From a virus (Duplodnaviria; Caudoviricetes): a stretch of DNA of 64,000 bases. Positions within the stretch are counted from its first letter, which is position 1, and each line of letters begins with the position of its first letter. Where the stretch lies: the IMG/VR virus record IMGVR_UViG_3300024219_000003, positions 1,300-65,299 of that record; one strand, written 5' to 3'. The position numbers and the translations under genes were made by a program. The notes under the pieces are model-generated. The model saw only the letters and a program-made list of their open reading frames with translations, was not told the DNA's origin and searched no databases. Shown here in pieces: positions 38,234 to 55,973 of the stretch.

Positions 38234-38380
38234 GCTTATTGACAGGGCGACTTTGAGATGGCCGCTGCGCCGCTTCAGTCCGCTCGGACGCGCGGTTGTC
38301 ATGTGGATGCTCGTGGCGGTTGTGGTGCTGACGATCTGGGCGCTGATCCCGTCGTGCTACGGCGTAGGGAGTTGTGAGCC

Positions 38381-39304: not shown

Positions 39305-39382
39305 GCTGGCGTAGCTCAGTTGGCTAGAGCAGTTGCCTTGTAAGCGACAGGTCGCCGGTTCGATTCCGGGCCGTCAGCACCA
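39305..39382 (+). tRNA. tRNA-Thr(UGU)
   Basis: Acceptor GCTGGCG/CGTCAGC, D arm GCTC/GAGC, anticodon loop CT-TGT-AA, TTCGATT T loop, encoded CCA. Confidence 0.92.
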
Positions 39383-40386: not shown

Positions 40387-40422
40387 TCCCGCTCCTGTCT
40401 GAGAAATCATGTTATCGGTAAA

Positions 40423-40683
40423 TTAAAGCCGCTCGATCTTAGCGTAGATTTCGTCGAATGCGCCGCGCCACCCTTCTCGCTGCTCGGGGCCGGCATGTGC
40501 CCAAGGGCATCGACGGCTTTCACGAGCACCACGCAACGCCTGCTCGATTGCTATCTGCCTCGCCCCCGCTTCCGCACCCTGGATTAACTCGATCAAGTCG
40601 TTGAGGACTTCCGTATCGGAGTGCGTAAAATTGCCTCGTCGATCGCAGGTGCGAATTTTGTGGAGCAAGTCCAGAGCGTTCAT
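40423..40683 (-). CDS. cassette ORF, hypothetical
   Basis: Bounded by sites 40396 and 40692. Confidence 0.6.
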   Translation of the reverse strand: MNALDLLHKIRTCDRRGNFTHSDTEVLNDLIELIQGAEAGARQIAIEQALRGARESRRCPWAHAGPEQREGWRGAFDEIYAKIERL

Positions 40684-40707
40684 AGTCGTGTGATCCTATA
40701 AAGCCTG

Positions 40708-40920
40708 TTATGAGATCGCCTCGTCGCGCTCAAAGTCGCATTGCCTAACGTGCTCACGATAAGTCTGAACTTTCTCGCCCGGCATTTTCATCGTGACGCG
40801 CTTGTATTGCTCCCCTTGAGCGATGATGCCACGACAGGTCGCACAGACGTAAGACTTGCGTGCTTTGCCAAAGCGCGTTTGGAAAAATTCGGGGCGTTCG
40901 TAATCCTCTTGCCAACTCAT
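40708..40920 (-). CDS. cassette ORF, zinc-finger-like
   Basis: KARKSYVCATCRGIIAQGEQY; stop inside site 40692. Confidence 0.65.
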   Translation of the reverse strand: MSWQEDYERPEFFQTRFGKARKSYVCATCRGIIAQGEQYKRVTMKMPGEKVQTYREHVRQCDFERDEAIS

Positions 40921-40931
40921 TTGGCATCCCC

Positions 40932-41342
40932 TTACCGAGAATGTTGATTATAAGACTTGCCTAGTTGGGTTATTTGCGCCTCGATATAGGCGTGAAGTTT
41001 AGGTGCCCGCCGGGGCAGGTCGGCCAACCCTGTGCCGACACCATCTGATGGGATCACGATGTCCATGCCATCGCGCAGGAGAAGGCGTAGCTTAGAAAAC
41101 GCTCCGTCAATTGCCTCCCTTACCGAGCGATCGACTAGGCAGTCATCCGAGAAATACGCGCTCGGGCGCGTATGAGGTGCCCACTTCGTAGGGATGCCGA
41201 CCGTATTTGGCTCCCCTCTCATGGCTTTGGCTTGGCCACCGAAGCCTTTGCGCTCCATGTTGTCACCAAACACGAAGATCGCTGAGCGGCGGGAACGCAC
41301 TTCCTCGCGGGTGATGAATTTTTGGCGGAGAACCGAAGCCAT
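40932..41342 (-). CDS. cassette ORF, DUF7831/macro-like phage protein
   Basis: IFVFGDNMERKGFGGQAKAMRGEPNTVGIPTK. Confidence 0.65.
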   Translation of the reverse strand: MASVLRQKFITREEVRSRRSAIFVFGDNMERKGFGGQAKAMRGEPNTVGIPTKWAPHTRPSAYFSDDCLVDRSVREAIDGAFSKLRLLLRDGMDIVIPSDGVGTGLADLPRRAPKLHAYIEAQITQLGKSYNQHSR

Positions 41343-41370
41343 CTGGTAAATTGTCCTATAATAACCGTTA

Positions 41371-41589
41371 TCAGCGCCACGTTTCGGCGTAGAGCCAAAC
41401 ATGCATTGCGTTCGCGTGTGGGAACAGCAATTCGTAGACCCCCCACCAGAAGCCGTGCGGCTCGGTAAACCACGTCCGCGTGTCGAGTGGTGTGCCGAAG
41501 ATCGCATGGGCCTGTACGCGCTCAATGGCATCGTTGGCCCACGGCCCGGGTGCGGCGGATAGCATCGTACCGATGAATTGCGGGTCCAT
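41371..41589 (-). CDS. cassette ORF, hypothetical
   Basis: Bounded by sites 41352 and 41590. Confidence 0.55.
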   Translation of the reverse strand: MDPQFIGTMLSAAPGPWANDAIERVQAHAIFGTPLDTRTWFTEPHGFWWGVYELLFPHANAMHVWLYAETWR

Positions 41590-41605
41590 TTACCGACAAA
41601 CCCGG

Positions 41606-42085
41606 TTATCGGCTATTTTCGAGGGTTTGGTAGTAGAACGCATGGAGGAACCCAAGCGGCGTGCCGCCCATCTTCTCGATCATCCACAGCCACAGCGCAC
41701 GACCGGATCGACCGTTGCCATCGGTGAACGGGTGCAGCGTCTCGTACTCGACATGCGCGTGCCACGGCGAAATATCAAAACCATTGATGTCCCGGAGCAG
41801 TTTGTTTAGATCGCCGATTAACTTGGTTCCACCACGCGGCGCGACATGGCTTCCGACTCGGACATTCAGATCGCTGCGATTTCGCAAAACCGCATCGGAC
41901 TGATATACGCCGACAAGTGCCTCAAGTGAGGAGATCATTATCTCAGGGAGCACCAAGAACCGTTCGGTAGCCTCAATCTCGGCATCTGTGGGATCACGGT
42001 AAATCCCTTCAATCGCGTTGCTCTCACGAACAAATTTCGCGAGTTTCACAAAAGGACTGGAGAATCGGTGTTCTGTCTCGATCAT
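41606..42085 (-). CDS. cassette ORF, Fic-domain protein
   Basis: Canonical HPFTDGNGRSGR; N-terminal SNAIEG inhibitory-type motif. Confidence 0.92.
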   Translation of the reverse strand: MIETEHRFSSPFVKLAKFVRESNAIEGIYRDPTDAEIEATERFLVLPEIMISSLEALVGVYQSDAVLRNRSDLNVRVGSHVAPRGGTKLIGDLNKLLRDINGFDISPWHAHVEYETLHPFTDGNGRSGRALWLWMIEKMGGTPLGFLHAFYYQTLENSR

Positions 42086-42106
42086 GGTGCTTTCCTATAA
42101 CCGCAT

Positions 42107-42514
42107 TTATGAGACTGGTCGCCATTCGTGAACGGCCTCGTTGTCATGCTTGACAACGGTGCAGTGCCATCCCCAATGCCGGATGATCGCCGGCATGATG
42201 TGGCCGATGGGTTCGATGACGACGGGTCGGTAGCCAGCTTGGCGAATGACCTCGATGAGACGCGTGAGTGCTCCGCGCTGTTGCTGCCGGGCATAAACCG
42301 CGACAATGCGAATTTCCTTGCGGCCCTCATCGAACGTGATAACGCCATCGTGCCAATCCTCCTTAGAGAAGGGAATTGGCTCGGTCGCGCCGGTCGCACC
42401 ATAGGGAATGATGCCATAGCCCTTCTCGTATTCCAGATCGGACATGCGCCCAATTACCCCGCGCGGATGATTGATGATCCGGTGAATTTCAGCGGCGAGC
42501 TGCGTGGCGTCCAT
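42107..42514 (-). CDS. cassette ORF, possible GNAT-like protein
   Basis: IRIVAVYARQQQRGALTRLIEVI; bounded by sites. Confidence 0.55.
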   Translation of the reverse strand: MDATQLAAEIHRIINHPRGVIGRMSDLEYEKGYGIIPYGATGATEPIPFSKEDWHDGVITFDEGRKEIRIVAVYARQQQRGALTRLIEVIRQAGYRPVVIEPIGHIMPAIIRHWGWHCTVVKHDNEAVHEWRPVS

Positions 42515-42541
42515 GATTGTCCTATAATACCGCTTATGAGA

Positions 42542-42697
42542 TTACGAGCCTTCGGCGTCCTGCATCCGGTCGTCAAAATCGTCGTCGATCGCCTTCTGGA
42601 TGATCTCGGCGACTGCCTGCGTGATGAGGTAGCCACTGCGACCGACCATCTTCATGATCTCGGCCGCCGCGTCCTCGGCTCGCTCACCTGTCACCAT
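42542..42697 (-). CDS. cassette ORF, small acidic protein
   Basis: AGGAGG RBS; MVTGERAEDAAAEIMK. Confidence 0.55.
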   Translation of the reverse strand: MVTGERAEDAAAEIMKMVGRSGYLITQAVAEIIQKAIDDDFDDRMQDAEGS

Positions 42698-42818
42698 CCC
42701 GTCCTCCTATAAGAAACGCCCGTCGCCAGCGCGGGGCCGCCAAGCCCATTCGTGTTTCTCCATTGAATGAACCGCGCCGGTTCGGGGCGCTCCGCAGCGT
42801 CATTGCCGCGAAGCCTGA

Positions 42819-43010
42819 TCATCGATGGTGCCGTGCGATCTCGGCGTCGAAGTCGTCAGCGAGCCGGCGCAGCATGGAACTCATGCGCTGCACGTCTCGG
42901 ACCAACGGTTTTTTGCGATCCCATTTCAGGTCGATGCCCAGGCCATATTGACCCATCGAACACGTCACCGTGCCCTGATACACCGGCTCTGGGCTTTCGT
43001 TGTCAGCCAT
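42819..43010 (-). CDS. cassette ORF, hypothetical
   Basis: Starts just inside site 43022. Confidence 0.5.
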   Translation of the reverse strand: MADNESPEPVYQGTVTCSMGQYGLGIDLKWDRKKPLVRDVQRMSSMLRRLADDFDAEIARHHR

Positions 43011-43046
43011 TTTCGCTCCATTGTCCGATAAGAGACATTCTAGGAA

Positions 43047-43304
43047 TTACCATTCCGCATAAACATGGAGTTCAGCCCCACACGGCAGTCGTTCCAGTTC
43101 ATCGGCCAGCGCGTTCCATAGCGTTTTCCGTTCGGTAAATCCGCCAACAGATGCCCGGTGCATCGCACGCAACACGGGAATTTGGTCGCGCCCAACGCCC
43201 GAGCGTCCGAACGTCTCCTCATACGTCGTCCAATCCGAACTGAGCCCCGGCAGGCTCTTGTCCTTCTTCGGCGCAATGACGCGACACATAATGGAAATGC
43301 CCAT
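43047..43304 (-). CDS. cassette ORF, hypothetical
   Basis: Bounded by sites 43022 and 43308. Confidence 0.6.
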   Translation of the reverse strand: MGISIMCRVIAPKKDKSLPGLSSDWTTYEETFGRSGVGRDQIPVLRAMHRASVGGFTERKTLWNALADELERLPCGAELHVYAEW

Positions 43305-43313
43305 GACGTTCCC

Positions 43314-43520
43314 TTAATCGACTTTATGGGTAAAAGTCGGACCTAGATCGCGCTCTACTAGAGATCCCTCAAAATAGGCATTCAGCATCGCTATCCCTCC
43401 AGCAATCACCAAAGCCACATGGTCTGCAAACGCTCCACCTATAACGAGAACAACACCCACCCAATAAACTATTACGGCAACAATCTCGATTGCCTCTGAC
43501 CGACGCATCCGTTTTATCAT
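43314..43520 (-). CDS. cassette ORF, 2-TM membrane protein
   Basis: IVAVIVYWVGVVLVIGGAF...; bounded by sites. Confidence 0.6.
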   Translation of the reverse strand: MIKRMRRSEAIEIVAVIVYWVGVVLVIGGAFADHVALVIAGGIAMLNAYFEGSLVERDLGPTFTHKVD

Positions 43521-43530
43521 TTGATTTCCC

Positions 43531-43671
43531 TTAATTGATCTTATAGGTAAAAAGCAGCGCCTCACGCTGGGAACGGCCAGCGATCAATTCGTTCTCAGCG
43601 TTCGTGGATTGTCCTCTAGCGGACGCCCCCTGAGAACCATTCACCCGAAGTCTGTCTCGGATGGCGCGCAT
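43531..43671 (-). CDS. cassette ORF, 46-aa peptide
   Basis: ATG directly after site 43672, whose spacer reads AAGGAG; stop inside site 43525. Confidence 0.45.
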   Translation of the reverse strand: MRAIRDRLRVNGSQGASARGQSTNAENELIAGRSQREALLFTYKIN

Positions 43672-43677
43672 TGTCTG

Positions 43678-43932
43678 TTAACTCCTTTTATAAGCGTCGA
43701 AGCGGCGGGGAAGCCCCGGTATTCGTTTGCCTACATCTAGCCCTTGAAAATTGCGATCCGTCGAATTGGTATGGGTGGTCGCGATGTGCATCCGTTCGCC
43801 GGGCACGTTGCGCGCGAATAGGATATTCCAATCTTCGTAGGTCTCCTCCCGCACAGCCGATGTGTAATGCCGGCAGCAACCAACGCCCGGCATACCTTCC
43901 CATGTCACTCGGTAAAACCCTTCTGGGGTCAT
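43678..43932 (-). CDS. cassette ORF, hypothetical
   Basis: Starts and ends in sites. Confidence 0.6.
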   Translation of the reverse strand: MTPEGFYRVTWEGMPGVGCCRHYTSAVREETYEDWNILFARNVPGERMHIATTHTNSTDRNFQGLDVGKRIPGLPRRFDAYKRS

Positions 43933-43947
43933 TTCTCAGAATGCTCC

Positions 43948-44199
43948 TTAACGGACAAAAAGGACGTGGGCCAGCACGCCCAGCGCACAGATCGTCGCGA
44001 TGGCGGCGGCGAGCACGAAGAACGCGAGCACTCGGGAGCCGCCGGTCAGCGCCTGGTCTTCGGTCACGATGAGCCCGCTGGACGTAGCGAGCCGGTCGAT
44101 GTGCTCCCATCTGGCGTCGAGATCGTCGTCGAAGCTGGCCTCGCGGTCTTCGAGGTCATCGGGCCATGAGGCCGGCGTCGGATAGCGGACGAATGTCAT
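43948..44199 (-). CDS. membrane protein
   Basis: C-terminal TM; stop inside site 43932. Confidence 0.55.
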   Translation of the reverse strand: MTFVRYPTPASWPDDLEDREASFDDDLDARWEHIDRLATSSGLIVTEDQALTGGSRVLAFFVLAAAIATICALGVLAHVLFVR

Positions 44200-44606
44200 A
44201 ACTCCTCCGAGCGTTTATGATCGACGCGCAGCAAAGGCCCGCAGGCAGCGATCAGCATGTCGGGATCATTTGCGGGATCACGCAGTTCCGTAAATACGCA
44301 AACAGACCCTAACAACCCCCAACGGACCAATTTACTGATCTGTTCGTCGAGATTGCTGCGATCGACCACCCACTCGCCTCCTTCTTCCTTGGAGGCAACA
44401 ATTTTGGATAGACCACCAACCGCACAAAAATGAAACAACCTGTCGTCTTTTACAGAGCATTTTTCTTCCGATTGATCCGTAAATACGATCTGAAACTTCG
44501 TCTTCAGATCGCTTTGTCGTGCCGATGGTTGAAAAGCCAGCCACATATCTATGGCAACTAATGCGATAAGCAGTCCGGCGAGAGAGAGTTGGATAACACG
44601 GATCAT
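44196..44606 (-). CDS. hypothetical protein with N-terminal TM
   Basis: MIRVIQLSLAGLLIALVAIDMWL. Confidence 0.55.
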   Translation of the reverse strand: MIRVIQLSLAGLLIALVAIDMWLAFQPSARQSDLKTKFQIVFTDQSEEKCSVKDDRLFHFCAVGGLSKIVASKEEGGEWVVDRSNLDEQISKLVRWGLLGSVCVFTELRDPANDPDMLIAACGPLLRVDHKRSEEL

Positions 44607-44779
44607 CGCGTCTTCCCCTCCCCGCACGCCGGCACCGTCAGCCCGCGCTTGATCTGGACCCACGTGAACCCGGGGAAGTCGGGCATCAGCGTTCGGTATA
44701 TCTCGCGCTCGTCGTAACGCTTATCGACCGCCGCGTTTGCCCGGCGCAGGATCTCGTCGAAGGTGGCCTTGTCGATCAT
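44603..44779 (-). CDS. small hypothetical protein
   Basis: ATGA-coupled on both sides. Confidence 0.45.
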   Translation of the reverse strand: MIDKATFDEILRRANAAVDKRYDEREIYRTLMPDFPGFTWVQIKRGLTVPACGEGKTR

Positions 44780-45024
44780 CGCCGGGCCTCGATAAGACCG
44801 TCGATCAATCGTGAAGCTACAGCTCCCGATAATTCGTCCGGCATTTGTGATAACGTTTCCTCAACGACGACGATCAGCGTGCGCAGCTTCCGCTCGCTCT
44901 CGGCGGCGCGTGACCCGGCGGCGATGAGACGGTCGGCCATTGTCGTGTCCGCCGCCTTCACGCCAGCCTCGAAACAAGCGTTCGCTGTGGCTGCCGTCTC
45001 TTTGATCTGGTCGATGATGTCCAT
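44776..45024 (-). CDS. hypothetical protein
   Basis: First leftward ORF; no HTH/S24 features. Confidence 0.55.
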   Translation of the reverse strand: MDIIDQIKETAATANACFEAGVKAADTTMADRLIAAGSRAAESERKLRTLIVVVEETLSQMPDELSGAVASRLIDGLIEARR

Positions 45025-45121
45025 TCTCTATCTCCGTGCCGCTGCGCCAGGCTCGGGTCTGAGGGAACCCGGCGACCGCCCGAGGGGATCAGGCAGGGCG
45101 CGGCGACGGGTGAATAGTGCG

Positions 45122-45174
45122 GCGAGATTTTCGCTGTGGCAAGCGATTTTTTCGCTTGTTAGCGATTTTTTCGC
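45122..45174. promoter_or_regulatory. three tandem operators GCGA-N5-TCGC
   Basis: GCGAGATTTTCGC 45122, GCGATTTTTTCGC 45143 and 45162, in the divergent intergenic region. Confidence 0.75.
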
Positions 45175-45190
45175 GTGCTAGGGTTCCGCC

Positions 45191-45445
45191 ATGAAAGACG
45201 CACCAGCTATCGCCGCGAGGCGCATAATCCAGAAATTCGGCGGCCCCGCAAGCCTTGCACGCTGTCTTACTATAGGCGGCGACACAGTTCCCGCATCGAC
45301 TGTGCGAAGCTGGCAGAACGCTGGCATCCCGGTCAAGTGGCAGCATCCCGTCATTCTTGCCGGTGCGCGCGGGGCTGTACCGATCGCACCCGAGGACTTC
45401 TTCGAGCCGATCATTGAGCCGTTCCGGCCGGAGGCGGCCCAATGA
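45191..45445 (+). CDS. Cro-like HTH regulator
   Basis: IIQKFGGPASLAR...STVRSWQNAGIP. Confidence 0.8.
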   Translation: MKDAPAIAARRIIQKFGGPASLARCLTIGGDTVPASTVRSWQNAGIPVKWQHPVILAGARGAVPIAPEDFFEPIIEPFRPEAAQ

Positions 45446-46577: not shown

Positions 46578-46768
46578 GCCAGTCGATCGCCATCCGCCGC
46601 AAGGGCAACCTTATCGCGATCGAGGACTTAGAAGACACGCCGGATCACAAGGGCGTCTTGAAGACGACATATCTGACGCCCGACGATGCGATTGCGTTGT
46701 TCCAAGCCGGCCTAACGATTGCGTGGGCAACGAAGTCAGAAGGCGTCACGGTTGCCACCGCGTTCTGA
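46574..46768 (+). CDS. hypothetical protein
   Basis: GTGA coupling; stop inside site 46762. Confidence 0.5.
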   Translation: MSQSIAIRRKGNLIAIEDLEDTPDHKGVLKTTYLTPDDAIALFQAGLTIAWATKSEGVTVATAF

Positions 46769-46923
46769 TAATGCCTAATCTCAGTAAACGTCCTTCCTTT
46801 CCGCCTGCTGGCTGGGCTACGAGCGTGGAATGCGGCCCGGTGGCCAACGGGTATTGCCGTTCGATACGGCTAGGTGCTTTGACAGCCAGCAGGCGCAAGG
46901 GAAGGCTTAACAGGAGGACGAAG

Positions 46924-47259
46924 ATGCTTGAACACGAAGACGGCAAGCCGACCGGCGAATTCGATTCCATGCTCGACCTCGATCGCTCGACGCTCACCAA
47001 GAGCTTCGTCGATCGTATGGAGGAGTGCCTGCGCCATCAGCAGGTAGCCTCCGACGATCTCAAAGAGGTCTGCGCCGAAGCCACGGCGGCGGAGTTCGGC
47101 CCGCACGACATCAAGGCGATGAAGAAGATCGCTCGCATCCGGCTCAAGGATCAGCAGAGCGACGCCCGCGACCAGCTTGAAGCGCTGGAGCGCATCGGTC
47201 GCATCGTCCAGTTCGAGTTGTTCGATTGGGACGAGCGCCACGTGGACGCGAAGCACTAA
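46924..47259 (+). CDS. GapR-like (DUF2312) DNA-binding protein
   Basis: KSFVDRMEE...SDDLKEVCAEA..AEF...KAMKKIARIR..D. Confidence 0.7.
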   Translation: MLEHEDGKPTGEFDSMLDLDRSTLTKSFVDRMEECLRHQQVASDDLKEVCAEATAAEFGPHDIKAMKKIARIRLKDQQSDARDQLEALERIGRIVQFELFDWDERHVDAKH

Positions 47260-47340
47260 TAGTTGCCCCGCTTGCGCTCCCGGGCAGTTAGGCGGCTGGC
47301 GTCGCCGTGGGGGAGACGCCAGCCGCCGCAGGAGGATGGG

Positions 47341-47661
47341 ATGAAGACAGGGATAGACTGGGCCGCGAAGCCGGAACCCTGGTGTTGGGTTGGCCCAGCA
47401 TTGCGCGCTGATGTGGAAGCAATCGTTGCGGGAATCGCTCCGCCTTGGGGCAGTCGAGTTCGCATCCATGATGCTGCTGCGCTGGAGTTACGCGACAGGC
47501 GAGTCAAGGCGCGGCTTACCCAGACAGAACTAGCGCGTCGCGTCGGGTGCTCCTGCTCGACGATCAGTAATATCGAGAACGGTATTGGCAGCGCGTCGGG
47601 GAGCATGTGGGGTCGGATTGATGCCGAGCTGATCCGTTCCGAGAATATGGATTCTCGGTAA
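47341..47661 (+). CDS. XRE-family HTH protein
   Basis: LRDRRVKARLTQTELARRVGCSCSTISNIENG. Confidence 0.8.
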   Translation: MKTGIDWAAKPEPWCWVGPALRADVEAIVAGIAPPWGSRVRIHDAAALELRDRRVKARLTQTELARRVGCSCSTISNIENGIGSASGSMWGRIDAELIRSENMDSR

Positions 47662-47915
47662 TGAGCGAGATGGTCGAGCGGATCAGATCACGGATTTGCA
47701 GCCTGAGAGGTACCGACGACGAGACCTTGGCCCGCGCCATTTTGCTCGTAATCCGCGAGCCGACCGAGGCAATCTTGGCGGCAGTCATACCATTCCCTGA
47801 GAATAGCGCCGCGCCTCGCTACCTGATGGCAGCGGCGGTTGCCGCTGATCGGCTGGCATTCCGAACTCGCTGGCAGGACGCGATCGACGCCATGCTTACC
47901 GAGAAGAAGGGTTAA
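47661..47915 (+). CDS. cassette ORF, hypothetical
   Basis: Starts and ends in sites. Confidence 0.6.
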   Translation: MSEMVERIRSRICSLRGTDDETLARAILLVIREPTEAILAAVIPFPENSAAPRYLMAAAVAADRLAFRTRWQDAIDAMLTEKKG

Positions 47916-47921
47916 GAGAAA

Positions 47922-48182
47922 ATGGAAGTCTGTCTAGGAGATGAGCGTAGGCCCGGGATCGAAATGCTATCGTTTCGCGGGGAGCCGGGATATCAGGATG
48001 AAGAAATCTACATTTCGAACTCCTTGAGCAATGGCCTACGCATTGAGATTGCAAATTTCGATGACGAAGAGTGCGGGAACGCGCATGCGTTTCATATCAA
48101 AGACCCCGCTACCGCCCGGCGTATTGCTGAGCGCTTGATTGAATGGTCCAGTCGGATTGCAGACCCTCCGCAAGTCCCATAA
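47922..48182 (+). CDS. cassette ORF, hypothetical
   Basis: Starts and ends in sites. Confidence 0.6.
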   Translation: MEVCLGDERRPGIEMLSFRGEPGYQDEEIYISNSLSNGLRIEIANFDDEECGNAHAFHIKDPATARRIAERLIEWSSRIADPPQVP

Positions 48183-48203
48183 CGGCTTTTATAGGACAAT
48201 GCC

Positions 48204-48659
48204 ATGATCCGCGAGCGAGTGCTTTATTGGGCAAGACGGTATGCCTCTCGGCGTATGCCCGATTTCGTGATCGGCGATCGGCAGCTTGAGCGTTGGTGGC
48301 TTATCCCACGTAACAAACTGTTCAACATCTACCTCCACCGCTTCAATCGGAGCGATGAGGATCGCGCGCTGCACGACCATCCGTGGTGTTCTCTAGGGTG
48401 GATACTCGGGCCGGGAGGCTATACCGATTATGAAGCTCGGCGCATTCGGTGGCGGCCTCCGGGATGCTGGACATGGCGTTGGCCTACGAGCGCGCATCGC
48501 GTGCTGCTCCCTGGCGATAAGGGGCCTGTCTATACGCTTTTCATTACCGGGCCGGTTGTGCGCGAATGGGGCTTTCATTGTCCGCAGGGCTGGAGGCATT
48601 GGAAGGAGTTTGTTTCGATCGTACCTGGCGGCAACAAAATCGGTCGCGGGTGCGATTAG
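48204..48659 (+). CDS. cassette ORF, cupin-like phage protein
   Basis: NIYLHRF..SDEDRALHDHPW...TLFITGP..REWGF. Confidence 0.7.
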   Translation: MIRERVLYWARRYASRRMPDFVIGDRQLERWWLIPRNKLFNIYLHRFNRSDEDRALHDHPWCSLGWILGPGGYTDYEARRIRWRPPGCWTWRWPTSAHRVLLPGDKGPVYTLFITGPVVREWGFHCPQGWRHWKEFVSIVPGGNKIGRGCD

Positions 48660-48687
48660 GCCGAGAATGTAAATTATAGGACCGCAC

Positions 48688-48891
48688 ATGGCTGACACAT
48701 CGCTAATGCCCTTGGCTCATGCCCACGACGCCCTCGGCGATCTCGTGAGCCAATTCCACAACGAGATGCTTCGCCAAGGTATCAAAGAAATGCCGGCACG
48801 AAAATGGGTCGAGGAATTCCGCAGTTGGATCGACGCTTACGATTTCGAGCGGCAATATGCCGAGACCCTGAAATCGTTGTCCGATAAGTAA
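48688..48891 (+). CDS. cassette ORF, hypothetical
   Basis: Bounded by sites 48658 and 48878. Confidence 0.6.
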   Translation: MADTSLMPLAHAHDALGDLVSQFHNEMLRQGIKEMPARKWVEEFRSWIDAYDFERQYAETLKSLSDK

Positions 48892-48911
48892 CGTTATAGG
48901 ATAGGATAAGG

Positions 48912-49154
48912 GTGATGCGCAGAATGACGATTCCGTTAATGTACGGCGATGCCGAATTACGTGTGCTACCAGGCGATGACCATAACCCGCCACTACCGAT
49001 CCATGTTACCGAATACGTTGATCTCGACCGCGAGCACGATTTCAGCCCACAGTTGATTCGCGTTACGCTTCCTCCGGGCCGGCAATGGGCATTGCTCCCT
49101 GCGGAAATGTTCTCTCGCGAAGTCCGCGACACTCTAGCCGATAAGAACACTTAA
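48912..49154 (+). CDS. cassette ORF, hypothetical
   Basis: Bounded by sites 48878 and 49135. Confidence 0.6.
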   Translation: MMRRMTIPLMYGDAELRVLPGDDHNPPLPIHVTEYVDLDREHDFSPQLIRVTLPPGRQWALLPAEMFSREVRDTLADKNT

Positions 49155-49167
49155 GGGAAAATACACC

Positions 49168-49428
49168 ATGGGAACCAAGAGCAACCCTGGCCGCTTCGAT
49201 TGCTACGCGAACGCGGGCGACGACGAGCCGATGTTCATCCTGTTGGGTAGAGACCCACATGGGCACGCCGCTGTACGGAAATGGGCCGATGATCGGATGG
49301 CTATGATCCACGCCGGACAAAAGCCCGAGACGGACGTACACATGGTCAAAGAGGCCCGTGAGTGCGCCGACGCGATGGAGCAATACGCTATCGCTTGGCA
49401 GAACCGGAAGCGCGCCGATGTCCCATAA
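49168..49428 (+). CDS. cassette ORF, conserved phage hypothetical
   Basis: GTKSNPGRFDCY...DEPMFILLGRD. Confidence 0.65.
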   Translation: MGTKSNPGRFDCYANAGDDEPMFILLGRDPHGHAAVRKWADDRMAMIHAGQKPETDVHMVKEARECADAMEQYAIAWQNRKRADVP

Positions 49429-49447
49429 AGATCATTCTCGGTAAATT

Positions 49448-49816
49448 ATGACCAAACCATGCATGACGCCCGGCGCTACCTACAGTGTAGGCGGCGATGA
49501 GTTTGGCAATTTTCTGATTCAGGTCCATGTGCCTAAAAGTGGCGCTGGCCCCAGTAACTATGTTCGTGGCTTATATGGAATAAAATTCACCAAACGGTCG
49601 GCCACTTTCGCAACGACGGATGCAGAGAACCTCAGGCGTTACGAGGAAGCCGATATAGAGCGCAAGCGTCTTACTAAGGCGTTCCATGATGCGTTAGAGC
49701 CACTTATTGCGGATTTCTATAGAACAATTTGGAAGGATGCGTTTGCGGGGAAACGATTGGATGGAGAGGTTATGCCCGAATCATATGATGAATATCTGAG
49801 AGGCCCCCACAAATGA
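49448..49816 (+). CDS. cassette ORF, hypothetical
   Basis: Starts 3 nt after site 49419. Confidence 0.55.
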   Translation: MTKPCMTPGATYSVGGDEFGNFLIQVHVPKSGAGPSNYVRGLYGIKFTKRSATFATTDAENLRRYEEADIERKRLTKAFHDALEPLIADFYRTIWKDAFAGKRLDGEVMPESYDEYLRGPHK

Positions 49817-50202
49817 GCCAGATACACGGACGACGAGACGCCTCCCGGACATTCTCCGACGACGAATTGGCCCGAGCCGCATGGCCGAAAACGGCTGAAG
49901 ATCAAGCCATCGCGGCAGAATATCGTCGTGTCATGGACGAGGAGCTTGCCGAGCGTCGAGAAGATGAGGAAAAGCGATCGTCCGAAGCGCGATACGAGGC
50001 AGGGGATCATCCCGGCCCCTGGAGCGTCAAAACCGAGCCGTCCGGTTACAGCAACGGACAGGATCACGTCTATATCGTTGATGGTCGTGGGCGGATCGTG
50101 ACCCTGATTTCCTACCCTGCGCAAGGCGGCTGGTATCGGTACGCTGGCGCGAACAAAGGGATTGCTCAAGCGATTTGCGCTGCAATGAACCGTCAACGCT
50201 GA
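49813..50202 (+). CDS. hypothetical protein
   Basis: HPGPWSV motif; ends at site 50204. Confidence 0.55.
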   Translation: MSQIHGRRDASRTFSDDELARAAWPKTAEDQAIAAEYRRVMDEELAERREDEEKRSSEARYEAGDHPGPWSVKTEPSGYSNGQDHVYIVDGRGRIVTLISYPAQGGWYRYAGANKGIAQAICAAMNRQR

Positions 50203-50227
50203 GTTACCGATAAGCGCGATTATAGGC

Positions 50228-50256
50228 TTGCGGCGGCGGGCGGAATCCGAGACAAT
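50228..50256 (+). promoter_or_regulatory. putative sigma70 promoter
   Basis: TTGCGG-17-GACAAT; predicted +1 near 50263. Confidence 0.55.
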
Positions 50257-50262
50257 GCGCGC

Positions 50263-50466
50263 GCTGCGGCGGCGTGGAAAGCAGACACGCACCTACGAAC
50301 CACGGGTGGCAAACGGAGAGCGGGAACTGACACCAAGGATGAACCGCAACGTGTCGTGGCCCTCGCCTGCAATGGTGTCCTTGCAGGATGTAGGGTAGGC
50401 AAGTGGGCATGGATCTAACGGTCTATGATATCGACAGCCAAGCCGGGGTAGCGTCCGGCCCGCAGC
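50263..50466 (+). ncRNA. candidate tRNA-like ncRNA (sRNA-Xcc1-like by recollection)
   Basis: Closing stem GCTGCGG/CCGCAGC, hairpin GCGTG-GAAAGCAGA-CACGC, hairpin GCCGG-GGTAGCGT-CCGGC. Confidence 0.55.
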
Positions 50467-50470
50467 ATTT

Positions 50471-51367
50471 TTGGAGGATCGCTTGGATATAGACTTCGCC
50501 CGAGGACGTTGGGCACCGGCTACCCGCGCCGCCTACGCCGTCTCGTGGGCGGACTTCGATCGGTGGTGTCGAGACAATGTGACGCCGGGGGATGGTCCGC
50601 TGCCAGCCTCACCACAAATCATTGCCGACTTCCTGACCGCGCGGGCCGAGACTCACAGCACGTCAACCCTGAGCGGGCGTCTTGCCGCCATCGTCGCCGT
50701 TCATTCGCTGTACGGCCGCGAGGTCAAGGTCAAGGGCACCGTCATCAAGGACGCCTGGTCGGAGATCCGCAGGCGCAAGGGCACCGCCAACAAGCCCAAG
50801 GCGGCGCTCGTGCTCGACGACATCAAGAAGATCATGGCCGGCGTCCCCGAGGAACGGCTTCTCGACCGGGCCGTACTTCTGATCGGCTTCGCCAGCGCGC
50901 TACGTCGGTCGGAGATCGTCGCACTCGACATCGCCGACCTAGAGTTCACCGACGCATCCCTGATGCTCAACGTGCGCCGCAGCAAGACGGACAAAGCCGG
51001 GAAGGGCACGCTGGTCTGCATCCTCCGCAGCGGCTCCGTGCTGTGCCCTGTGGCCGCGCTAGAGCGGTGGATCGAGGCTGAGGGTATCAAGACCGGCCCT
51101 GTGTTCCGCTGCCGTGGCGAGGATCGTATGGACGCCCGCACCGTCGCCAACATGACGCAGCGATGGGGAGCGAAGGCCGGGTTCGATCCGCGCTCGCTCG
51201 GGGCTCACTCGCTGCGGCGGGGCTGCATCACTTCGATGTTCCTGGCGGGGGCTGACATCAAGCACGTGATGGAACACAGTCGGCACAAGACCGTGGCAAT
51301 CGCTATGGGCTACGTGCAGGCCCACACGGCGGAGGCAAACCCCGCGTTGAAGGCGATCCAGTTTTGA
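50471..51367 (+). CDS. tyrosine recombinase (Cre-like, with SAM-like N-domain)
   Basis: Catalytic set ALRRSE, SKTD, HSLRRG, SRH, MGY; real start may be TTG 50483 after GGAGG. Confidence 0.93.
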   Translation: MEDRLDIDFARGRWAPATRAAYAVSWADFDRWCRDNVTPGDGPLPASPQIIADFLTARAETHSTSTLSGRLAAIVAVHSLYGREVKVKGTVIKDAWSEIRRRKGTANKPKAALVLDDIKKIMAGVPEERLLDRAVLLIGFASALRRSEIVALDIADLEFTDASLMLNVRRSKTDKAGKGTLVCILRSGSVLCPVAALERWIEAEGIKTGPVFRCRGEDRMDARTVANMTQRWGAKAGFDPRSLGAHSLRRGCITSMFLAGADIKHVMEHSRHKTVAIAMGYVQAHTAEANPALKAIQF

Positions 51368-51870
51368 CGACACCGGCCCTCCTCCGCGCCGCGCAAGCCA
51401 TCTGGGATCGCGGCAGGACCAAGCCGCCGAGTTTCGATCTGCTGTCGGACGGGCAGCGCGCGGATCTGATTGAAGATGCAGCGGCGGCCATTCGTTCGCT
51501 ACTGACTGAGGATGGTCGAGCGAGCCACTGGAACCGCGCGCTATTGACCATTTTAGGCGCAAGTGACAGAAACCTTGACGGTGGCCTAGGCCAGTCTATT
51601 ATAAGCCCCACCACGCTATCTGACGGGGGTTCGGCCGATGTCTCGGTGCTGCCAAGAGCCAAGTTGCGGTCTGGCGCTTCCCACAAACGGTCCATATCGC
51701 CGGTTTTGCCCGGGAGGAAAGTGCAAGCGAACGTATCAGCACCGCGAGTTAAAGCGCGGGAGCCGGATCTGCGCGGTCGCGATGAAATGGAGACGGTTCA
51801 AGCGCAGTCATCAGGCCGGCGCCGTCAATCCGCACAACCCATACTTCGGCGAGCTGACCGCCATGCTTGA
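51364..51870 (+). CDS. hypothetical protein (3' half doubtful)
   Basis: TTGA coupling to recombinase; overlaps a promoter and the next ORF. Confidence 0.35.
   Translation: MTTPALLRAAQAIWDRGRTKPPSFDLLSDGQRADLIEDAAAAIRSLLTEDGRASHWNRALLTILGASDRNLDGGLGQSIISPTTLSDGGSADVSVLPRAKLRSGASHKRSISPVLPGRKVQANVSAPRVKAREPDLRGRDEMETVQAQSSGRRRQSAQPILRRADRHA
51575..51602 (+). promoter_or_regulatory. putative sigma70 promoter with palindromic spacer
   Basis: TTGACG-16-TATTAT; TGGCCTAGGCCA palindrome in the spacer. Confidence 0.5.
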
Positions 51871-51919
51871 TGAGTTCATCCGCGAGGATCGCACGATGCG
51901 GGAGGCTGCCAGGCGATGA
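51638..51919 (+). CDS. Zn-finger hypothetical protein
   Basis: CQEPSC...FCPGGKC; ATGA coupling downstream. Confidence 0.5.
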   Translation: MSRCCQEPSCGLALPTNGPYRRFCPGGKCKRTYQHRELKRGSRICAVAMKWRRFKRSHQAGAVNPHNPYFGELTAMLDEFIREDRTMREAARR

Positions 51920-52110
51920 CAGATTGGAGCAAACCTTGCGGCTGTCGGCTCTGTGTAGAGGGTCGAGCGGCGTTCGGGCCACTTCCCCCGCCCTGGCGGA
52001 CCATGACCGTCTGCCCTACCTGCGGGAATAAGCGATGCCCTCATGCCACCGATCATCGGTATCCTTGCACGGATAGCAATGAACCGGGGCAGCTTGGGAG
52101 CGTCTACTGA
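51916..52110 (+). CDS. small Cys-rich protein
   Basis: CGCRLC...CPTCGNKRCPHATDHRYPC. Confidence 0.65.
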   Translation: MTDWSKPCGCRLCVEGRAAFGPLPPPWRTMTVCPTCGNKRCPHATDHRYPCTDSNEPGQLGSVY

Positions 52111-52457
52111 TGAAAACACCCACGCCTCCGCGCAAGCCGCGCCCGCCCGCGAAGTGGCGCCCGACGACGCCAAGCAAGAAGGCAATCCAGCGCGGCAACA
52201 AGTTCCTCGCCCCCTGTCTCGCGCTGGCGTTCGTCCTCGCCGGCAGCGCCGTATGGGCCGAGCCGACCGATTGGGCACTCTACACGCCCAGCGAGCGAAT
52301 GTGCGCTAAGACCCACGAAAGCTGCGAAATTGCTAGGCACGCTATTTGGGAAGGCTGGCTACTGGGCATACCGAAGGGCACCTTTAGCGTTTGCCAAATA
52401 CATCCAGATTGCTTCGACCCGGCGAGCAACGTCATCCCGGGATACCATGGGCGATGA
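52110..52457 (+). CDS. hypothetical protein with hydrophobic segment
   Basis: Coupled ORF. Confidence 0.5.
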   Translation: MKTPTPPRKPRPPAKWRPTTPSKKAIQRGNKFLAPCLALAFVLAGSAVWAEPTDWALYTPSERMCAKTHESCEIARHAIWEGWLLGIPKGTFSVCQIHPDCFDPASNVIPGYHGR

Positions 52458-52705
52458 CCACGTTTCAACAATACGGCATTGAGCCCTGCGCCTATAGCGT
52501 GCCAGTTGATCGCGTGCAGATCGTCCAACGTGACGAGAACGCCTGGGTTATCTACGACGCTGGTGCCTGCCTCAACATCTACGACGAATGGGAGATTGAG
52601 CCGCAACCGTCGAGCCGCACCGATGAGTTCAAGGCGCGCACCCGCATGCCGCTCGCCGAAGCGATGCAACGCGCGGTCTCATTCTTCAAGCTGAAGATGC
52701 GATGA
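52454..52705 (+). CDS. hypothetical protein
   Basis: ATGA-coupled on both sides. Confidence 0.55.
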   Translation: MTTFQQYGIEPCAYSVPVDRVQIVQRDENAWVIYDAGACLNIYDEWEIEPQPSSRTDEFKARTRMPLAEAMQRAVSFFKLKMR

Positions 52706-53178
52706 GAGGGGTCGAGCAGAAGCTACAGCAGCAGGTCGCCACCTATCTCGGGTGGGCGCTTGAACCTCCGGCGTGGTTCTCGTCCATCCCGGCCGGCGGC
52801 GGCGGCGAGATGCGGGGCCGCATCCTCAAGGGGACCGGATATAAGGCCGGCACGCCGGATCTGCTGATCGTTGCCGAAGGGCGCGCCTGGTTCATCGAAT
52901 TGAAAGCGCCCCGAGGCGTGCTGTCCGAGGCGCAGCGGCGCACCATCCCGCTGCTAGAGGCTGCCGGAGCGCGCGTCGTAGTGTGCCGCTCACTCGACGA
53001 GGTGCGCGGAGCACTTGATGCATGGGGCATCAAGACGCGAGAGACTAAGCCCGCGACCGAGCGCATCAGGCGCGGGTTTCTTGCCGCCCGGGCTCCGAAG
53101 GTCGGCGATGTGTGGGAGCCAATATGGCCCAAGGACGACCAGCTCGGGCGCAGGAGGAAACGACCCACAGCCCCTTAA
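52702..53178 (+). CDS. VRR-NUC domain nuclease
   Basis: GYKAGTPDLLIV...FIELKAPRGVLSEAQ. Confidence 0.88.
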   Translation: MRGVEQKLQQQVATYLGWALEPPAWFSSIPAGGGGEMRGRILKGTGYKAGTPDLLIVAEGRAWFIELKAPRGVLSEAQRRTIPLLEAAGARVVVCRSLDEVRGALDAWGIKTRETKPATERIRRGFLAARAPKVGDVWEPIWPKDDQLGRRRKRPTAP

Positions 53179-53217
53179 TCACGATTCTCGGTAAATACGA
53201 CCCAGCAGCGTCGATAG

Positions 53218-53466
53218 ATGATCCCGGACTACCTTCGTATCGGCGGGGCGATTATATACTTGACTGACGGCGCGGCATGGCTTAAGTTTCCGATCAAGGA
53301 GATAGGCCATGCGCACACCCGAGCTTTTGAGCGAACGGATGATTGCGTCAAGATCGCCCAGCATCTTCATTATCTCTACGTCTTCCCAGATGAGAGTGCG
53401 GAAGAGCGGAAGACATACGCCCCAATTCTAGCTGCCTCATGGCGATATAAACCCGACGCGCCGTAA
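53218..53466 (+). CDS. hypothetical protein
   Basis: Follows site 53169. Confidence 0.45.
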   Translation: MIPDYLRIGGAIIYLTDGAAWLKFPIKEIGHAHTRAFERTDDCVKIAQHLHYLYVFPDESAEERKTYAPILAASWRYKPDAP

Positions 53467-53811
53467 ACTCGTCTCCAGGGCCATACTCGCCGTCGAGCGC
53501 GGTATCGGCGATCACCGCCGCTCCCGCGTCGGCCATTTCTTGGGTGATTTCAATCTCAGCGCCGGCCTGTCGATTAGGATCCTTGCTCATTCTCGCCTCG
53601 TCAGTCAAGTATACAATGACCATCGGCGGGGATTGCTGCCGCCGGGAAAGTATCTGGCGGGAACTTCTTAAATAAGAACACCAATGCTCTGATATGAGGC
53701 GCAAGTTTTTCATGTGATTTTGTCTGTCGTTTAACCGTACGCCCTTTAAAGACACTCATCTTCGGGGGAGTGTCGCCCTCAACAAGATTTTCAAACTCCC
53801 CGCCGTGCATC

Positions 53812-54177
53812 TTAGCCATTCGCCGAGACATTTGTCAGATCTCTACGGTTTAGCCCATGCGCCTCGCCTAGTAGCGTGCCGCCGAGCTTTGCGTGCCCAC
53901 CCGCTGGGAGATCAGCGGCAATATCGATGGTCTTATCTGCTTGCCCCACGAGTTCGCCAATTCGTCGCCATGCGCGCATTTTGATGCGGTGAGCGAGATT
54001 GACGAGGGTTTCATCCTGAGCCTGTTTGTAATAACTCGCGATAGCTTCCGCACGAGCAGCCCATTGGCGGCACTCATCAACCGATTCGCATTCAATCAGG
54101 ATTTGTCGAGCACGGTCGTATAGGCGTGGCAGTTGCGCTTTCTCCCATCCCAACGGCGGAGCAGGAAGCCCAGACAT
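53812..54177 (-). CDS. hypothetical protein (resembles N-terminal domain of phage MT-A70 fusions)
   Basis: YDRARQIL.ECESVDEC...AEAIASYYKQAQD...IKMRAWRRIGEL. Confidence 0.55.
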   Translation of the reverse strand: MSGLPAPPLGWEKAQLPRLYDRARQILIECESVDECRQWAARAEAIASYYKQAQDETLVNLAHRIKMRAWRRIGELVGQADKTIDIAADLPAGGHAKLGGTLLGEAHGLNRRDLTNVSANG

Positions 54178-54184
54178 TTACGTT

Positions 54185-54421
54185 TTACCGAGAAAGCGCA
54201 TTCTGAGCTAAGTCGAGTTGTCGCTTGGCAAATGCCAAGGCCGCAGATTTAGCCTCATCAGATGACTCAAACATCTTGCTAAGCCGTGCCCCGAAAACAT
54301 CAACACGGTATGGCGGCGGTGGCCCATTGCGTGTCCCGATCTCGCGAGTCACAGAAATTTTCAACGCTGGCGATAGCGTCATCGACCACGATTCGCCGTA
54401 TCTCGACGCTACCCATTCCAT
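54185..54421 (-). CDS. cassette ORF, hypothetical
   Basis: Bounded by sites 54185 and 54427. Confidence 0.55.
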   Translation of the reverse strand: MEWVASRYGESWSMTLSPALKISVTREIGTRNGPPPPYRVDVFGARLSKMFESSDEAKSAALAFAKRQLDLAQNALSR

Positions 54422-54438
54422 CGCATTTACCGACAATA

Positions 54439-55002
54439 TCAGTTATGGGACAAGTGCAGTAAATCGTCTGATGGCTCCTTAGCTCGCGCCAATTTCTTAT
54501 TTAGAATCCATCGCCAGGAAGCGGGGACGGGGTAGCCGCCGTTGTCCCAAATATCTTTCAGAACGCGGTCATTCAATTGCCCTCGTTCTCCAAGCACGCG
54601 CCATATATGTTGCTGAAGGCACTGAGTTGTTGTGCCGATGCTGTGCGCTGTTCGTGTCCATGTATAGCCACGCTCGCGCAACGTAATGCCGCGTTGTATC
54701 TGTTCTCCAGTAAGAACGTGTTGCGCTCTGCCATAGCATCGCTGTGAGCAATATTTTCTAGGATCTCCTGGGCGTAGCCAAAGCGAGTTTTTGCAGACAG
54801 GACAGACAAATGGCATCCGCCCTCTATGCGGAGCACCACTATGGCGAGGCAGTCGTTCGCCCGTGCGGCGTTCCCACGCCTTAAGCCGTTGATCGACCGC
54901 TTGTTTCGATACGCCCAATGCGCCACTGAGCACCGCGAGCGATATTCCACGCTTTCGCGCACATGCTAGGACATCTTGGCTTACTTGGATCATTTTTATC
55001 AA
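54439..55002 (-). CDS. HTH-Zn-HTH protein, paralog-like of 45442..46245
   Basis: LGVSKQAVDQRL.AWERRTGERLPR; CPVC...YCSQRC. Confidence 0.6.
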   Translation of the reverse strand: MIKMIQVSQDVLACARKRGISLAVLSGALGVSKQAVDQRLKAWERRTGERLPRHSGAPHRGRMPFVCPVCKNSLWLRPGDPRKYCSQRCYGRAQHVLTGEQIQRGITLRERGYTWTRTAHSIGTTTQCLQQHIWRVLGERGQLNDRVLKDIWDNGGYPVPASWRWILNKKLARAKEPSDDLLHLSHN

Positions 55003-55011
55003 AATGGTCTG

Positions 55012-55353
55012 TTAAGGGTAATTATCAGAACGTGAAGCCTGCGCGGCTTCCTGCACGAGCCGAATAGCTGCCAGCACTCGCGCCTTCGATATGGTACGGT
55101 CGCCCTTGTTGTGTTTGATGTGCTCATAAATTTCGTCAGTCGGGCTGCTGTAGGGCAGATTGGTATTCCAATCCTCCTCGACCGCGAAGCCGATGCCGAT
55201 CGTGGTGAACTTCGGGAATCCAACGATCGCCTGCTTGTCGCTAAGCCTGACACGAAACCGCCAATAATCTTCAGCGATTGGCGGAGTCATAATAACCGCT
55301 CCGATAACAGGTGATTCGTCCCGCTGTTCACGATCCTCAAGAACCAGATCCAT
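55012..55353 (-). CDS. hypothetical protein
   Basis: GGAG RBS; stop in degenerate site. Confidence 0.6.
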   Translation of the reverse strand: MDLVLEDREQRDESPVIGAVIMTPPIAEDYWRFRVRLSDKQAIVGFPKFTTIGIGFAVEEDWNTNLPYSSPTDEIYEHIKHNKGDRTISKARVLAAIRLVQEAAQASRSDNYP

Positions 55354-55434
55354 CTCACTCTCCCGTTCTGACGTTGCGCCGGGTGCTTTTCTCCCGCAGG
55401 CGCACCCAGCAAAGCCCGCTGTCAGGGTCGGAGG

Positions 55435-55704
55435 TCAGCCGCCAGAAGGAGAAGACGGCGAGATGTCGGACCCAGGAAGCTCGGGGTTTTTGACGGATGG
55501 GATAGCTTGCCGCCGATAGACCGTTACAATATCGGCCTCTTTGCGGAATTCTTCCATGACCTGCCGGGGGCGATCATCGGGCACCTGAGCACAGCGTTGT
55601 GCGAGATCCCATGCGATGTCCATAAGGGCGGCTTTGGAAAGCTTTTCGATCTCGCCACGATATTCTCGGGGAACAAAAATCGGTGGCTGGTTCTTTAGGT
55701 TCAT
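55435..55704 (-). CDS. hypothetical protein
   Basis: GGAGG RBS. Confidence 0.55.
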   Translation of the reverse strand: MNLKNQPPIFVPREYRGEIEKLSKAALMDIAWDLAQRCAQVPDDRPRQVMEEFRKEADIVTVYRRQAIPSVKNPELPGSDISPSSPSGG

Positions 55705-55775
55705 CTCTCGATCCTCCGTTTTGACGATGCGTCTGTAGCGCGCGGCGTGAGCGGCTGTCAAGCCTATATTAGCAC

Positions 55776-55973
55776 TTATCGGTAAATCGCTACCATTGCT
55801 TCTCTAGTCTTTTGCGCCCGCGCCCTAGCGCATGCCCGATTGGCGATGTGCTGGCGCTCGTTAGCGAGGACGCGGCGACGGGCGGCGAGCTGCGCCATCT
55901 CCTCGTCGATCAGCATGACGGCGGCAAGCTCCTCTTGTGTCGCGCCCTCGCGCCAGAGGCGGGGGGCGGTCAT
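55776..55973 (-). CDS. hypothetical protein
   Basis: Stop inside site 55760. Confidence 0.55.
   Translation of the reverse strand: MTAPRLWREGATQEELAAVMLIDEEMAQLAARRRVLANERQHIANRACARARAQKTREAMVAIYR

Follow-up and report, generated by a model that had tools for sequence, protein, structure and literature searches.

Repeated 26-bp palindromes at the early gene junctions of a phage: possible core sites of its own Cre-like recombinase

What is the role of a short palindrome that recurs 27 times in a phage genome, nearly always where one small early gene ends and the next begins? The question is raised by the IMG/VR virus record IMGVR_UViG_3300024219_000003 (Duplodnaviria; Caudoviricetes), a single contig of 65,299 bp, of which bases 1300-65299 form the stretch of 64,000 nucleotides analysed here. 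This stretch is called the window below, and coordinates refer to it unless another genome is named; the site scan took in the whole 65.3-kb genome. An earlier reading of the same DNA (the original prediction) had described about 26 dif-like sites bounding small accessory genes, and had proposed an integron-like or pdif-like system that captures, excises and shuffles single genes by means of the encoded recombinase or of host XerCD. The answer that we favour, tentatively and at somewhat less than an even chance, is that the palindromes are cognate core sites of the phage's own intact Cre-like recombinase, that they are competent for recombination with a partner set by the 6-bp centre of each site, and that the accessory genes lying between them are thereby exchangeable modules. 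The copies would probably act as crossover points for single-gene swaps between phages.

For the detection of the sites, a position weight matrix (PWM) was seeded with a dozen clear copies and iterated on both strands. It yielded 27 sites with scores of 22.5-34.5, while the best match that is not a site scored 20.2 (window position 2644) and the interval between 16 and 20 was empty. Two overlapping weak matches at 2627-2677, in a region of sugar genes (15.9 and 20.2; TTACGGATAA-N6-TTTATGGATAA), are the sole near-hits outside the early region. A degenerate 7-6-7 pattern gave 25-27 matches, against 0.2-6.4 in shuffled sequence. The predicted array was recovered at the positions first reported, with 12 sites in 40396-43957, nine in 46762-50229, and the others at 53169, 54185, 54427, 55006, 55760 and 63284; the copy at 55006 is the degenerate one that had been placed about 10 bp away, at 54996. 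The sites, together with the recombinase gene, are as follows, with the supporting score or analysis at the end of each line.

40396-40421, minus strand, site 1, left array, centre catgat in transcription sense; PWM 29.0
40692-40717, minus strand, site 2; PWM 25.7
40932-40957, minus strand, site 3; PWM 26.5
41352-41377, minus strand, site 4; PWM 23.5
41590-41615, minus strand, site 5; PWM 29.8
42091-42116, minus strand, site 6; PWM 29.5
42518-42543, minus strand, site 7; PWM 31.8
43022-43047, minus strand, site 8, centre tgtctc, as in the G001 site at 1571; PWM scan and centre comparison
43308-43333, minus strand, site 9, centre agtcga, as in the G001 site at 948, neighbour of site 8 in both phages; PWM scan and centre comparison
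43525-43550, minus strand, site 10; PWM 30.5
43672-43697, minus strand, site 11; PWM 24.4
43932-43957, minus strand, site 12, opening the leftward array, with centre ggagca, as in the G001 site at 59118; PWM scan and centre comparison
46762-46787, plus strand, site 13, opening the rightward array, with a 137-nt leader and no start codon after it; PWM 22.5
47636-47661, plus strand, site 14, within the 3' end of the XRE-HTH gene; PWM scan
47896-47921, plus strand, site 15; PWM 25.9
48173-48198, plus strand, site 16; PWM 33.4
48658-48683, plus strand, site 17; PWM 25.3
48878-48903, plus strand, site 18; PWM 34.5
49135-49160, plus strand, site 19, upstream limit of the 86-aa gene shared with G001, right arm of the G001 type (TTAAGGG); PWM scan
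49419-49444, plus strand, site 20, downstream limit of the same 86-aa gene; PWM scan
50204-50229, plus strand, site 21, closing the rightward array, 242 bp ahead of the recombinase gene; PWM scan
50471-51367, plus strand, Cre/Xer-like tyrosine recombinase, 298 aa, with R146, K172, H246, R249, H272 and Y281 intact; PF00589, profile
53169-53194, plus strand, site 22, past the VRR-NUC gene, centre tcacga, as in the G001 site at 57108; PWM scan and centre comparison
54185-54210, minus strand, site 23; PWM 25.0
54427-54452, minus strand, site 24; PWM 32.5
55006-55031, minus strand, site 25, the degenerate copy mentioned above; PWM 26.2
55760-55785, minus strand, site 26; PWM 30.5
63284-63309, no strand assigned, site 27, isolated copy; PWM 33.8

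Read in the sense of local transcription, the consensus is nnnCYNAKAA-N6-TTMTMGGWMA, with the downstream arm more conserved, and all the sites have the same polarity relative to transcription. A start codon follows the downstream arm within 0-12 nt at 22-23 of the 27 sites, and none follows the sites at 46762, 50204 and 53169. The stop codon of the upstream gene may fall in either arm or in the centre, and its frame varies; some sites are therefore located mostly within the 3' end of a gene. One open reading frame (ORF) occupies most intervals between sites. The weight-matrix scan found no site in the virion region, and the core gene blocks (recombinase-VRR-NUC, exonuclease-primase and the immunity region) have no internal sites. 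In these respects the scan agrees with the placement first reported, that is, at ORF junctions, with mostly one ORF per interval and none in the structural region. The G+C content of the arrays is about 5% below that of the rest of the genome.

The arrangement arm-6 bp-arm had been recognized as the core layout of a tyrosine recombinase, and two half-sites around a 6-bp centre are indeed what the aligned sites contain. When the 27 aligned sites were compared, the arms of one site paired at 66.3% of positions, against 68.4% when left and right arms were swapped between sites, and 443 of 500 shuffles equalled or exceeded the observed value. Because shuffled arms pair as well, the symmetry is a property of the consensus and not of the individual site, and the palindrome looks like two half-sites for a protein dimer (CYNAKAA-N6-TTMTMGG), not like an RNA hairpin. 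A hairpin or cruciform was rejected for this lack of co-variation between the arms. Sigma-70 promoters at the sites were also rejected (four promoter-like matches, against 8.2 in shuffles), as were CI/Cro operators, the switch region having its own GCGA-T6-CGC repeats, and known RNA families, Rfam giving no match at the sites. The sole Rfam match in the genome, with 59 bits, is a complete tRNA-Thr (anticodon TGT; 39305-39382), which ARAGORN also found and which lies where the late region ends.

The candidate for a protein acting on such sites is the product of the gene at 50471-51367, which is predicted to be a recombinase of the simple two-domain Cre/Xer type, with the full catalytic set R-K-H-R-H/W-Y and no arm-binding domain. 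A profile built from 41 homologues matches Cre over the full length (residues 6-287, E 2e-20), this being the best match in PDB, with XerA and XerD weaker; none of the catalytic residues R, K, HxxR, H and Y varies among the 41 homologues or in the three array-bearing phages described below. With the NCBIfam models of XerC, XerD and the integron integrases the recombinase scores far under the cut-offs (TIGR02249, 30 bits against a cut-off of 265), and membership of the integron family is therefore not supported. From the last array site to the recombinase gene there are 240 bp of non-coding DNA (50230-50470), once read as a tRNA-like RNA, in which Rfam gives no match at the gathering threshold.

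The link between the sites and the recombinase encoded at 50471, as originally proposed, gains support from comparative evidence, both from single sites and from arrays in relatives. Single sites were surveyed in metagenomic, viral and genomic loci with homologues about 35-43% identical to the recombinase. The palindrome CGATAA-N6-TTMTCG occurs within 350 bp upstream of the recombinase homologue at 30 of 214 loci, against 26 of 6490 control windows; in the window, the corresponding distance is the 242 bp between site 21 and the gene. In these distant homologues the single upstream palindrome is of the type CTTCCGATAA-N6-TTCTCGGAAG, and it extends to 14-6-14 in L008 (site at 1779-1804) and L013 (1175-1200); about 28 further loci have such a site. 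Its variants span Alphaproteobacteria, Negativicutes, Bifidobacterium, Rhodothermales, Burkholderiales and Actinomycetota. The neighbouring genes differ (an RHH gene in L008, a co-directional ORF in L208) and the centre varies freely, while the polarity relative to the recombinase gene is conserved. To judge from this survey, a recombinase gene with one upstream palindrome is a module widespread in bacterial genomes and proviruses of several phyla, which may serve in integration, resolution or autoregulation. An RHH-like gene adjoins the single site in both L008 and L013; the window phage has no clear homologue of the RHH protein beside the L008 site.

Among the phages of IMG/VR, only two have a recombinase more than 50% identical to that of the window phage (54-56%), namely G001 (59.4 kb, with direct terminal repeats) and G002 (97 kb). 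Exact matches to the degenerate 7-6-7 pattern number 22 and 23, respectively, and reversed-pattern controls gave none; if one mismatch is allowed, the matches become 44 and 53. The original prediction had recommended a scan of this genome and of related ones; the weight matrix gave 27 sites here, and the pattern search gave arrays in both relatives. The half-site of G001 and G002 is CCNTTAA/TTAANGG, compared with CCNATAA/TTATNGG in the window, and the downstream arm of G001, TTAAMGGAGA, is a full Shine-Dalgarno sequence. Only the recombinase and the primase are common to the three phages, their virion genes being unrelated, and in all three the arrays lie in two divergent early operons. The remaining 78 or so IMG/VR loci of the recombinase family have no more than two sites each, and a scan of the whole of IMG/VR with the G001-type motif, which is blind to arrays of the window-type motif, returned multiple matches only in G001 and G002. 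As far as these loci allow one to judge, the arrays follow the recombinase clade. Scans of IMG/VR with single proteins (the recombinase, or the product of the gene at 45442) gave nothing useful.

The most informative part of the site is its centre. That the cores differ between sites had been noted as a caveat at the outset, and all 27 centres in the window are in fact different. Within a genome, pairs of centres with at most one mismatch numbered 0, 0 and 0 in the three phages, against 3.0, 2.7 and 2.5 expected when the letters were shuffled within each centre. When genome labels were permuted over the 70 sites of the strict set, no close within-genome pairs were observed against 6.5 expected (P=0.0002); the same permutation of centres over the 106 sites of the relaxed set gave 8 against 18.5 (P=0.00075). 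Close pairs between genomes numbered 20 (strict) and 47 (relaxed). The centres are thus actively kept apart within a genome. This speaks against the free capture and shuffling between any two sites that had been envisaged, and fits exchange only between sites with matching centres.

For identical centres in the window phage and in G001, the null mean is 0.36-0.38, and four were observed (P ~0.001). Of these, tgtctc, agtcga and ggagca belong to the leftward array, while tcacga lies downstream of the recombinase gene. The first three are conserved in order and orientation, in the operon divergent from the cro-like gene that is shared with G001. The sites with agtcga and tgtctc are neighbours in both phages, and enclose an 85-aa gene in the window and an unrelated 199-aa gene in G001; the genes and the 70 nt flanking this pair of sites are also unrelated between the two phages. 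By our own estimate from the site counts, chance would produce two neighbouring centre matches about 6e-5 times. Three genes separate ggagca from agtcga in the window phage, and five do so in G001. The TTAA arm of the G001 type, otherwise rare in the window phage, is found at three of the four shared-centre sites and at the site upstream of the 86-aa gene; these hybrid arms, noticed post hoc, are suggestive only. Taken together, the centre statistics point to recombination competence.

The 86-aa gene itself (49168-49428) has a counterpart in G001, with an identity of 85% in protein and about 80% in DNA, compared with 52-55% for backbone genes. The homology covers the gene from start to stop codon, its limits being the two flanking sites; the genes on either side are unrelated. 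The GapR gene common to G002 behaves in the same way, with homology confined to the gene. The original prediction had proposed to see whether breakpoints in relatives fall exactly at site cores. In the one informative relative (G001), limits of homology do fall at the sites; the nucleotide homology of the 86-aa and GapR genes stops at the gene limits and cannot be placed to the centre of a site.

A scheme that would account for these observations starts from the state kept in distant relatives, presumably ancestral, with one site immediately preceding the recombinase gene. In a small phage clade this site would have multiplied to nearly every junction between small accessory genes of two divergent early operons, its downstream half-site doubling as a ribosome-binding site and its upstream half-site often providing a stop codon. 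Since every site has its own centre, sites of the same genome would be unable to recombine with each other, and a site would instead recombine with the copy of the same centre on another molecule, be it a co-infecting or resident relative or a sister genome. Crossovers at two neighbouring sites would then replace a single gene, much as in laboratory cassette exchange with incompatible lox sites. Such a choice of partner by the centre would explain why centres are distinct within a genome and why some are conserved between phages around replaced genes. In its fullest form, which we put forward with more reserve, this would be a natural cassette exchange by address: a clade of Cre-like enzymes would maintain arrays of mutually incompatible lox-like sites, the centres would serve as addresses common to otherwise unrelated phages, and a double crossover at neighbouring addresses would swap single accessory genes, with the site giving the incoming gene its ribosome-binding site and stop codon.

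Several points weigh against the assignment of the palindromes to the Cre-like recombinase as exchange sites. Binding, strand exchange, and gene exchange or mobility at the sites are predictions from sequence, and binding of the recombinase is inferred from co-occurrence only. No recombination product, excision, circle or rearranged variant was seen, junction or circle reads not having been searched. Centre pairs that differ by one base between genomes are at about chance level, and the observations on shared centres and hybrid arms are post hoc and concern a single pair of genomes. The gene at 38374-38688, shared with G002, is flanked by sites in G002 and by none in the window phage, and distant homologues of the 86-aa gene are without sites; sites, therefore, do not always travel with genes. 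Finally, distinct centres within a genome could instead serve to avoid homologous recombination, or stray catalysis by a recombinase that is mainly regulatory.

The last point leads to the rival explanation that fares best, namely that the recombinase or another phage protein binds the sites as operators or roadblocks, silencing or timing the accessory early genes, and that any recombination there is an unwanted side effect. Published precedents exist: in SPbeta, a repeated intergenic box, SPBRE, is the target of the master repressor MrpR/SroF, a protein with the fold of a tyrosine recombinase (PMC10516654; bioRxiv 10.1101/2025.11.27.690993), and repressors of the mycobacteriophage L5 type bind more than 20 stoperators in short intergenic spaces (PMC9283540). 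The sites studied here are likewise confined to early operons and stand directly at gene starts, and the single site of the relatives is preceded by a promoter-like region and followed by the start of the recombinase gene, as would fit autoregulation. A further candidate regulator is a CopG-type RHH protein (36475-36642), weakly conserved in all three phages. However, MrpR keeps only three of seven catalytic residues (PMC10516654), whereas the recombinase has retained every one, and the sites are palindromes of dimer type, unlike the asymmetric boxes of the monomeric MrpR/SroF or of the L5 repressor. Moreover, the divergent promoter region carries a different repeat, three copies of GCGA-T6-CGC at 45125-45180 beside the cro-like gene, and a separate immunity switch therefore exists; the recombinase is the sole regulator clearly common to the three phages; and regulation alone does not predict centres that are conserved between phages and kept apart within them. 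On balance we regard a purely regulatory function as possible, if somewhat unlikely, and it should be added that the sites may have a dual role, in regulation and in recombination.

The three GCGA-T6-CGC palindromes, which are arranged in tandem in the divergent region and directly precede the cro-like gene (45191-45445), differ from the 26-bp sites and probably represent the true operators of the lysis-lysogeny switch. The RHH protein (PF01402, E 9e-6) has weak homologues within the arrays of G001 and G002, and may be an accessory factor or a regulator.

A role in genome maintenance appears improbable. Each lox-like site would here recombine only with its own copy, provided by terminal redundancy or by a dimer, and many sites would assist cyclization after injection or dimer resolution, as Cre-loxP does in P1, with no exchange of genes. 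Such a role would suit a Cre-like recombinase and relatives with a single site beside the gene, and it too would require centres that are unique within the genome. Nevertheless, the ends of G001 are fixed direct terminal repeats and not permuted, one or few sites would suffice, and the occurrence of sites at nearly every accessory junction, with conserved centres flanking unrelated genes, would be left unexplained.

We consider it very improbable that the palindrome is a translational signal in RNA, that is, an intercistronic stop codon plus ribosome-binding-site motif, perhaps with a hairpin coupling translation. The right arm is certainly similar to a Shine-Dalgarno sequence (TTAAAGGAGA in G001), start codons are found 0-12 nt further on and the stop codon TAA is frequent in left arms, but pairing within sites is no better than between shuffled arms, the three sites without a following start codon do not fit, the Shine-Dalgarno sequence is outside the palindrome in the single-site relatives, and neither the link with the recombinase clade nor the centre statistics would be explained.

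Action of host XerCD, which the original prediction had allowed and which would resemble that on pdif modules or on Xer-using integrating elements (IMEX), is scarcely credible: the inner ATAA-N6-TTAT and the 6-bp centre do resemble dif, but the near-symmetric arms CYNAKAA/TTMTMGG match it only in ATAA/TTAT (dif XerD arm, TTATGTTAAAT), their outer parts are unlike XerC or XerD arms, the half-site changes with the clade of the phage recombinase (ATAA/TTAT in the window, TTAA/TTAA in G001 and G002), and the sites follow the phage recombinase across phyla.

As to the phage that hosts the array, it looks temperate from its gene content. It also encodes a RecE/Cas4-like exonuclease and a D5-type primase, and the presence of a GapR-like gene (46924-47259) suggests an alphaproteobacterial host. 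No close cultured relatives were found, megablast against phages giving no match and tblastn with the primase giving matches of at most 42% identity. The genes enclosed by the arrays are predicted to be accessory or toxin-antitoxin-like, and include a DUF7831 protein and a Fic/DOC-family protein (40932-42085) and, in the rightward array, an XRE/HipB-like HTH protein (47341-47661). The leader of about 135 nt (46790-46923) that separates site 13 from the GapR-like gene is a long GC-rich inverted repeat with no match in Rfam; the GapR gene of G002 is preceded by a leader of similar length and unrelated sequence.

Phage genomes are mosaics jointed at gene boundaries, and the cause has been debated for decades, as selection after random recombination or as dedicated linker sequences. 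If the palindromes are indeed core sites of the phage's Cre-like recombinase, an addressed site at each accessory-gene junction together with that enzyme would be a dedicated mechanism of mosaicism, comparable to integrons and dif modules, and one small recombinase would come with dozens of natural, mutually incompatible sites. Should the sites be regulatory, the recombinase-fold repressors found recently would gain a catalytically intact member, from another group of phages.

Among known systems, the MrpR/SroF-SPBRE system and the stoperators of cluster A mycobacteriophages (PMC10516654; 10.1101/2025.11.27.690993; PMC9283540) also have many copies of one box in short intergenic spaces of a temperate phage and, in SPbeta, a binding protein with tyrosine-recombinase fold. 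Their boxes are asymmetric and bound by monomers, and MrpR has lost catalytic residues, whereas the present phage combines palindromic sites with an intact enzyme and has a separate switch of the cro type. Integrons share a tyrosine recombinase adjoining co-oriented, promoterless small genes, each bounded by a recombination-type site. However, attC is folded, 57-141 bp long and has an R-box, while the present sites are duplex palindromes of 26 bp with no GTTRRRY box and no co-variation of arms; moreover, the protein is not IntI, and the recombinase gene has the same direction as the array. In the promoter-early stem-loop (PeSL) cassettes of T4-type phages, a repeated element likewise bounds small early genes and is tied to modular shuffling, which is thought to proceed by homologous recombination. 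Unlike PeSL elements, the present sites have no promoter signal (the 4 matches against 8.2 mentioned above) and no stem-loop co-variation.

Parallels are also found in the pdif modules of Acinetobacter plasmids (PMC13141974, PMC6449649), where many short arm-6 bp-arm sites for tyrosine recombinases likewise split an accessory region into small gene modules, with toxin-antitoxin-like and accessory cargo. These modules are on plasmids, use host XerCD and have distinct XerC and XerD arms, whereas here a phage has an element-encoded Cre-like enzyme and near-palindromic arms; pdif sites alternate in polarity, while the present ones are uniform relative to transcription; and here the modules are mostly of a single gene, the sites doubling as stop codon and ribosome-binding site. 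With Cre-loxP of P1 the system shares a simple two-domain recombinase and a palindromic site beside its gene, and the 14-6-14 site of the single-site relatives has the same total length as loxP, 34 bp. The arms of the array sites, in comparison, are conserved only over the inner 7-10 bp, and recombination is here inferred from sequence. The reaction partner is expected to depend on the centre, as in Cre-loxP and in laboratory cassette exchange by incompatible lox sites; yet P1 has one loxP with an 8-bp centre, while the phages described here have 27-44 sites with differing 6-bp centres.

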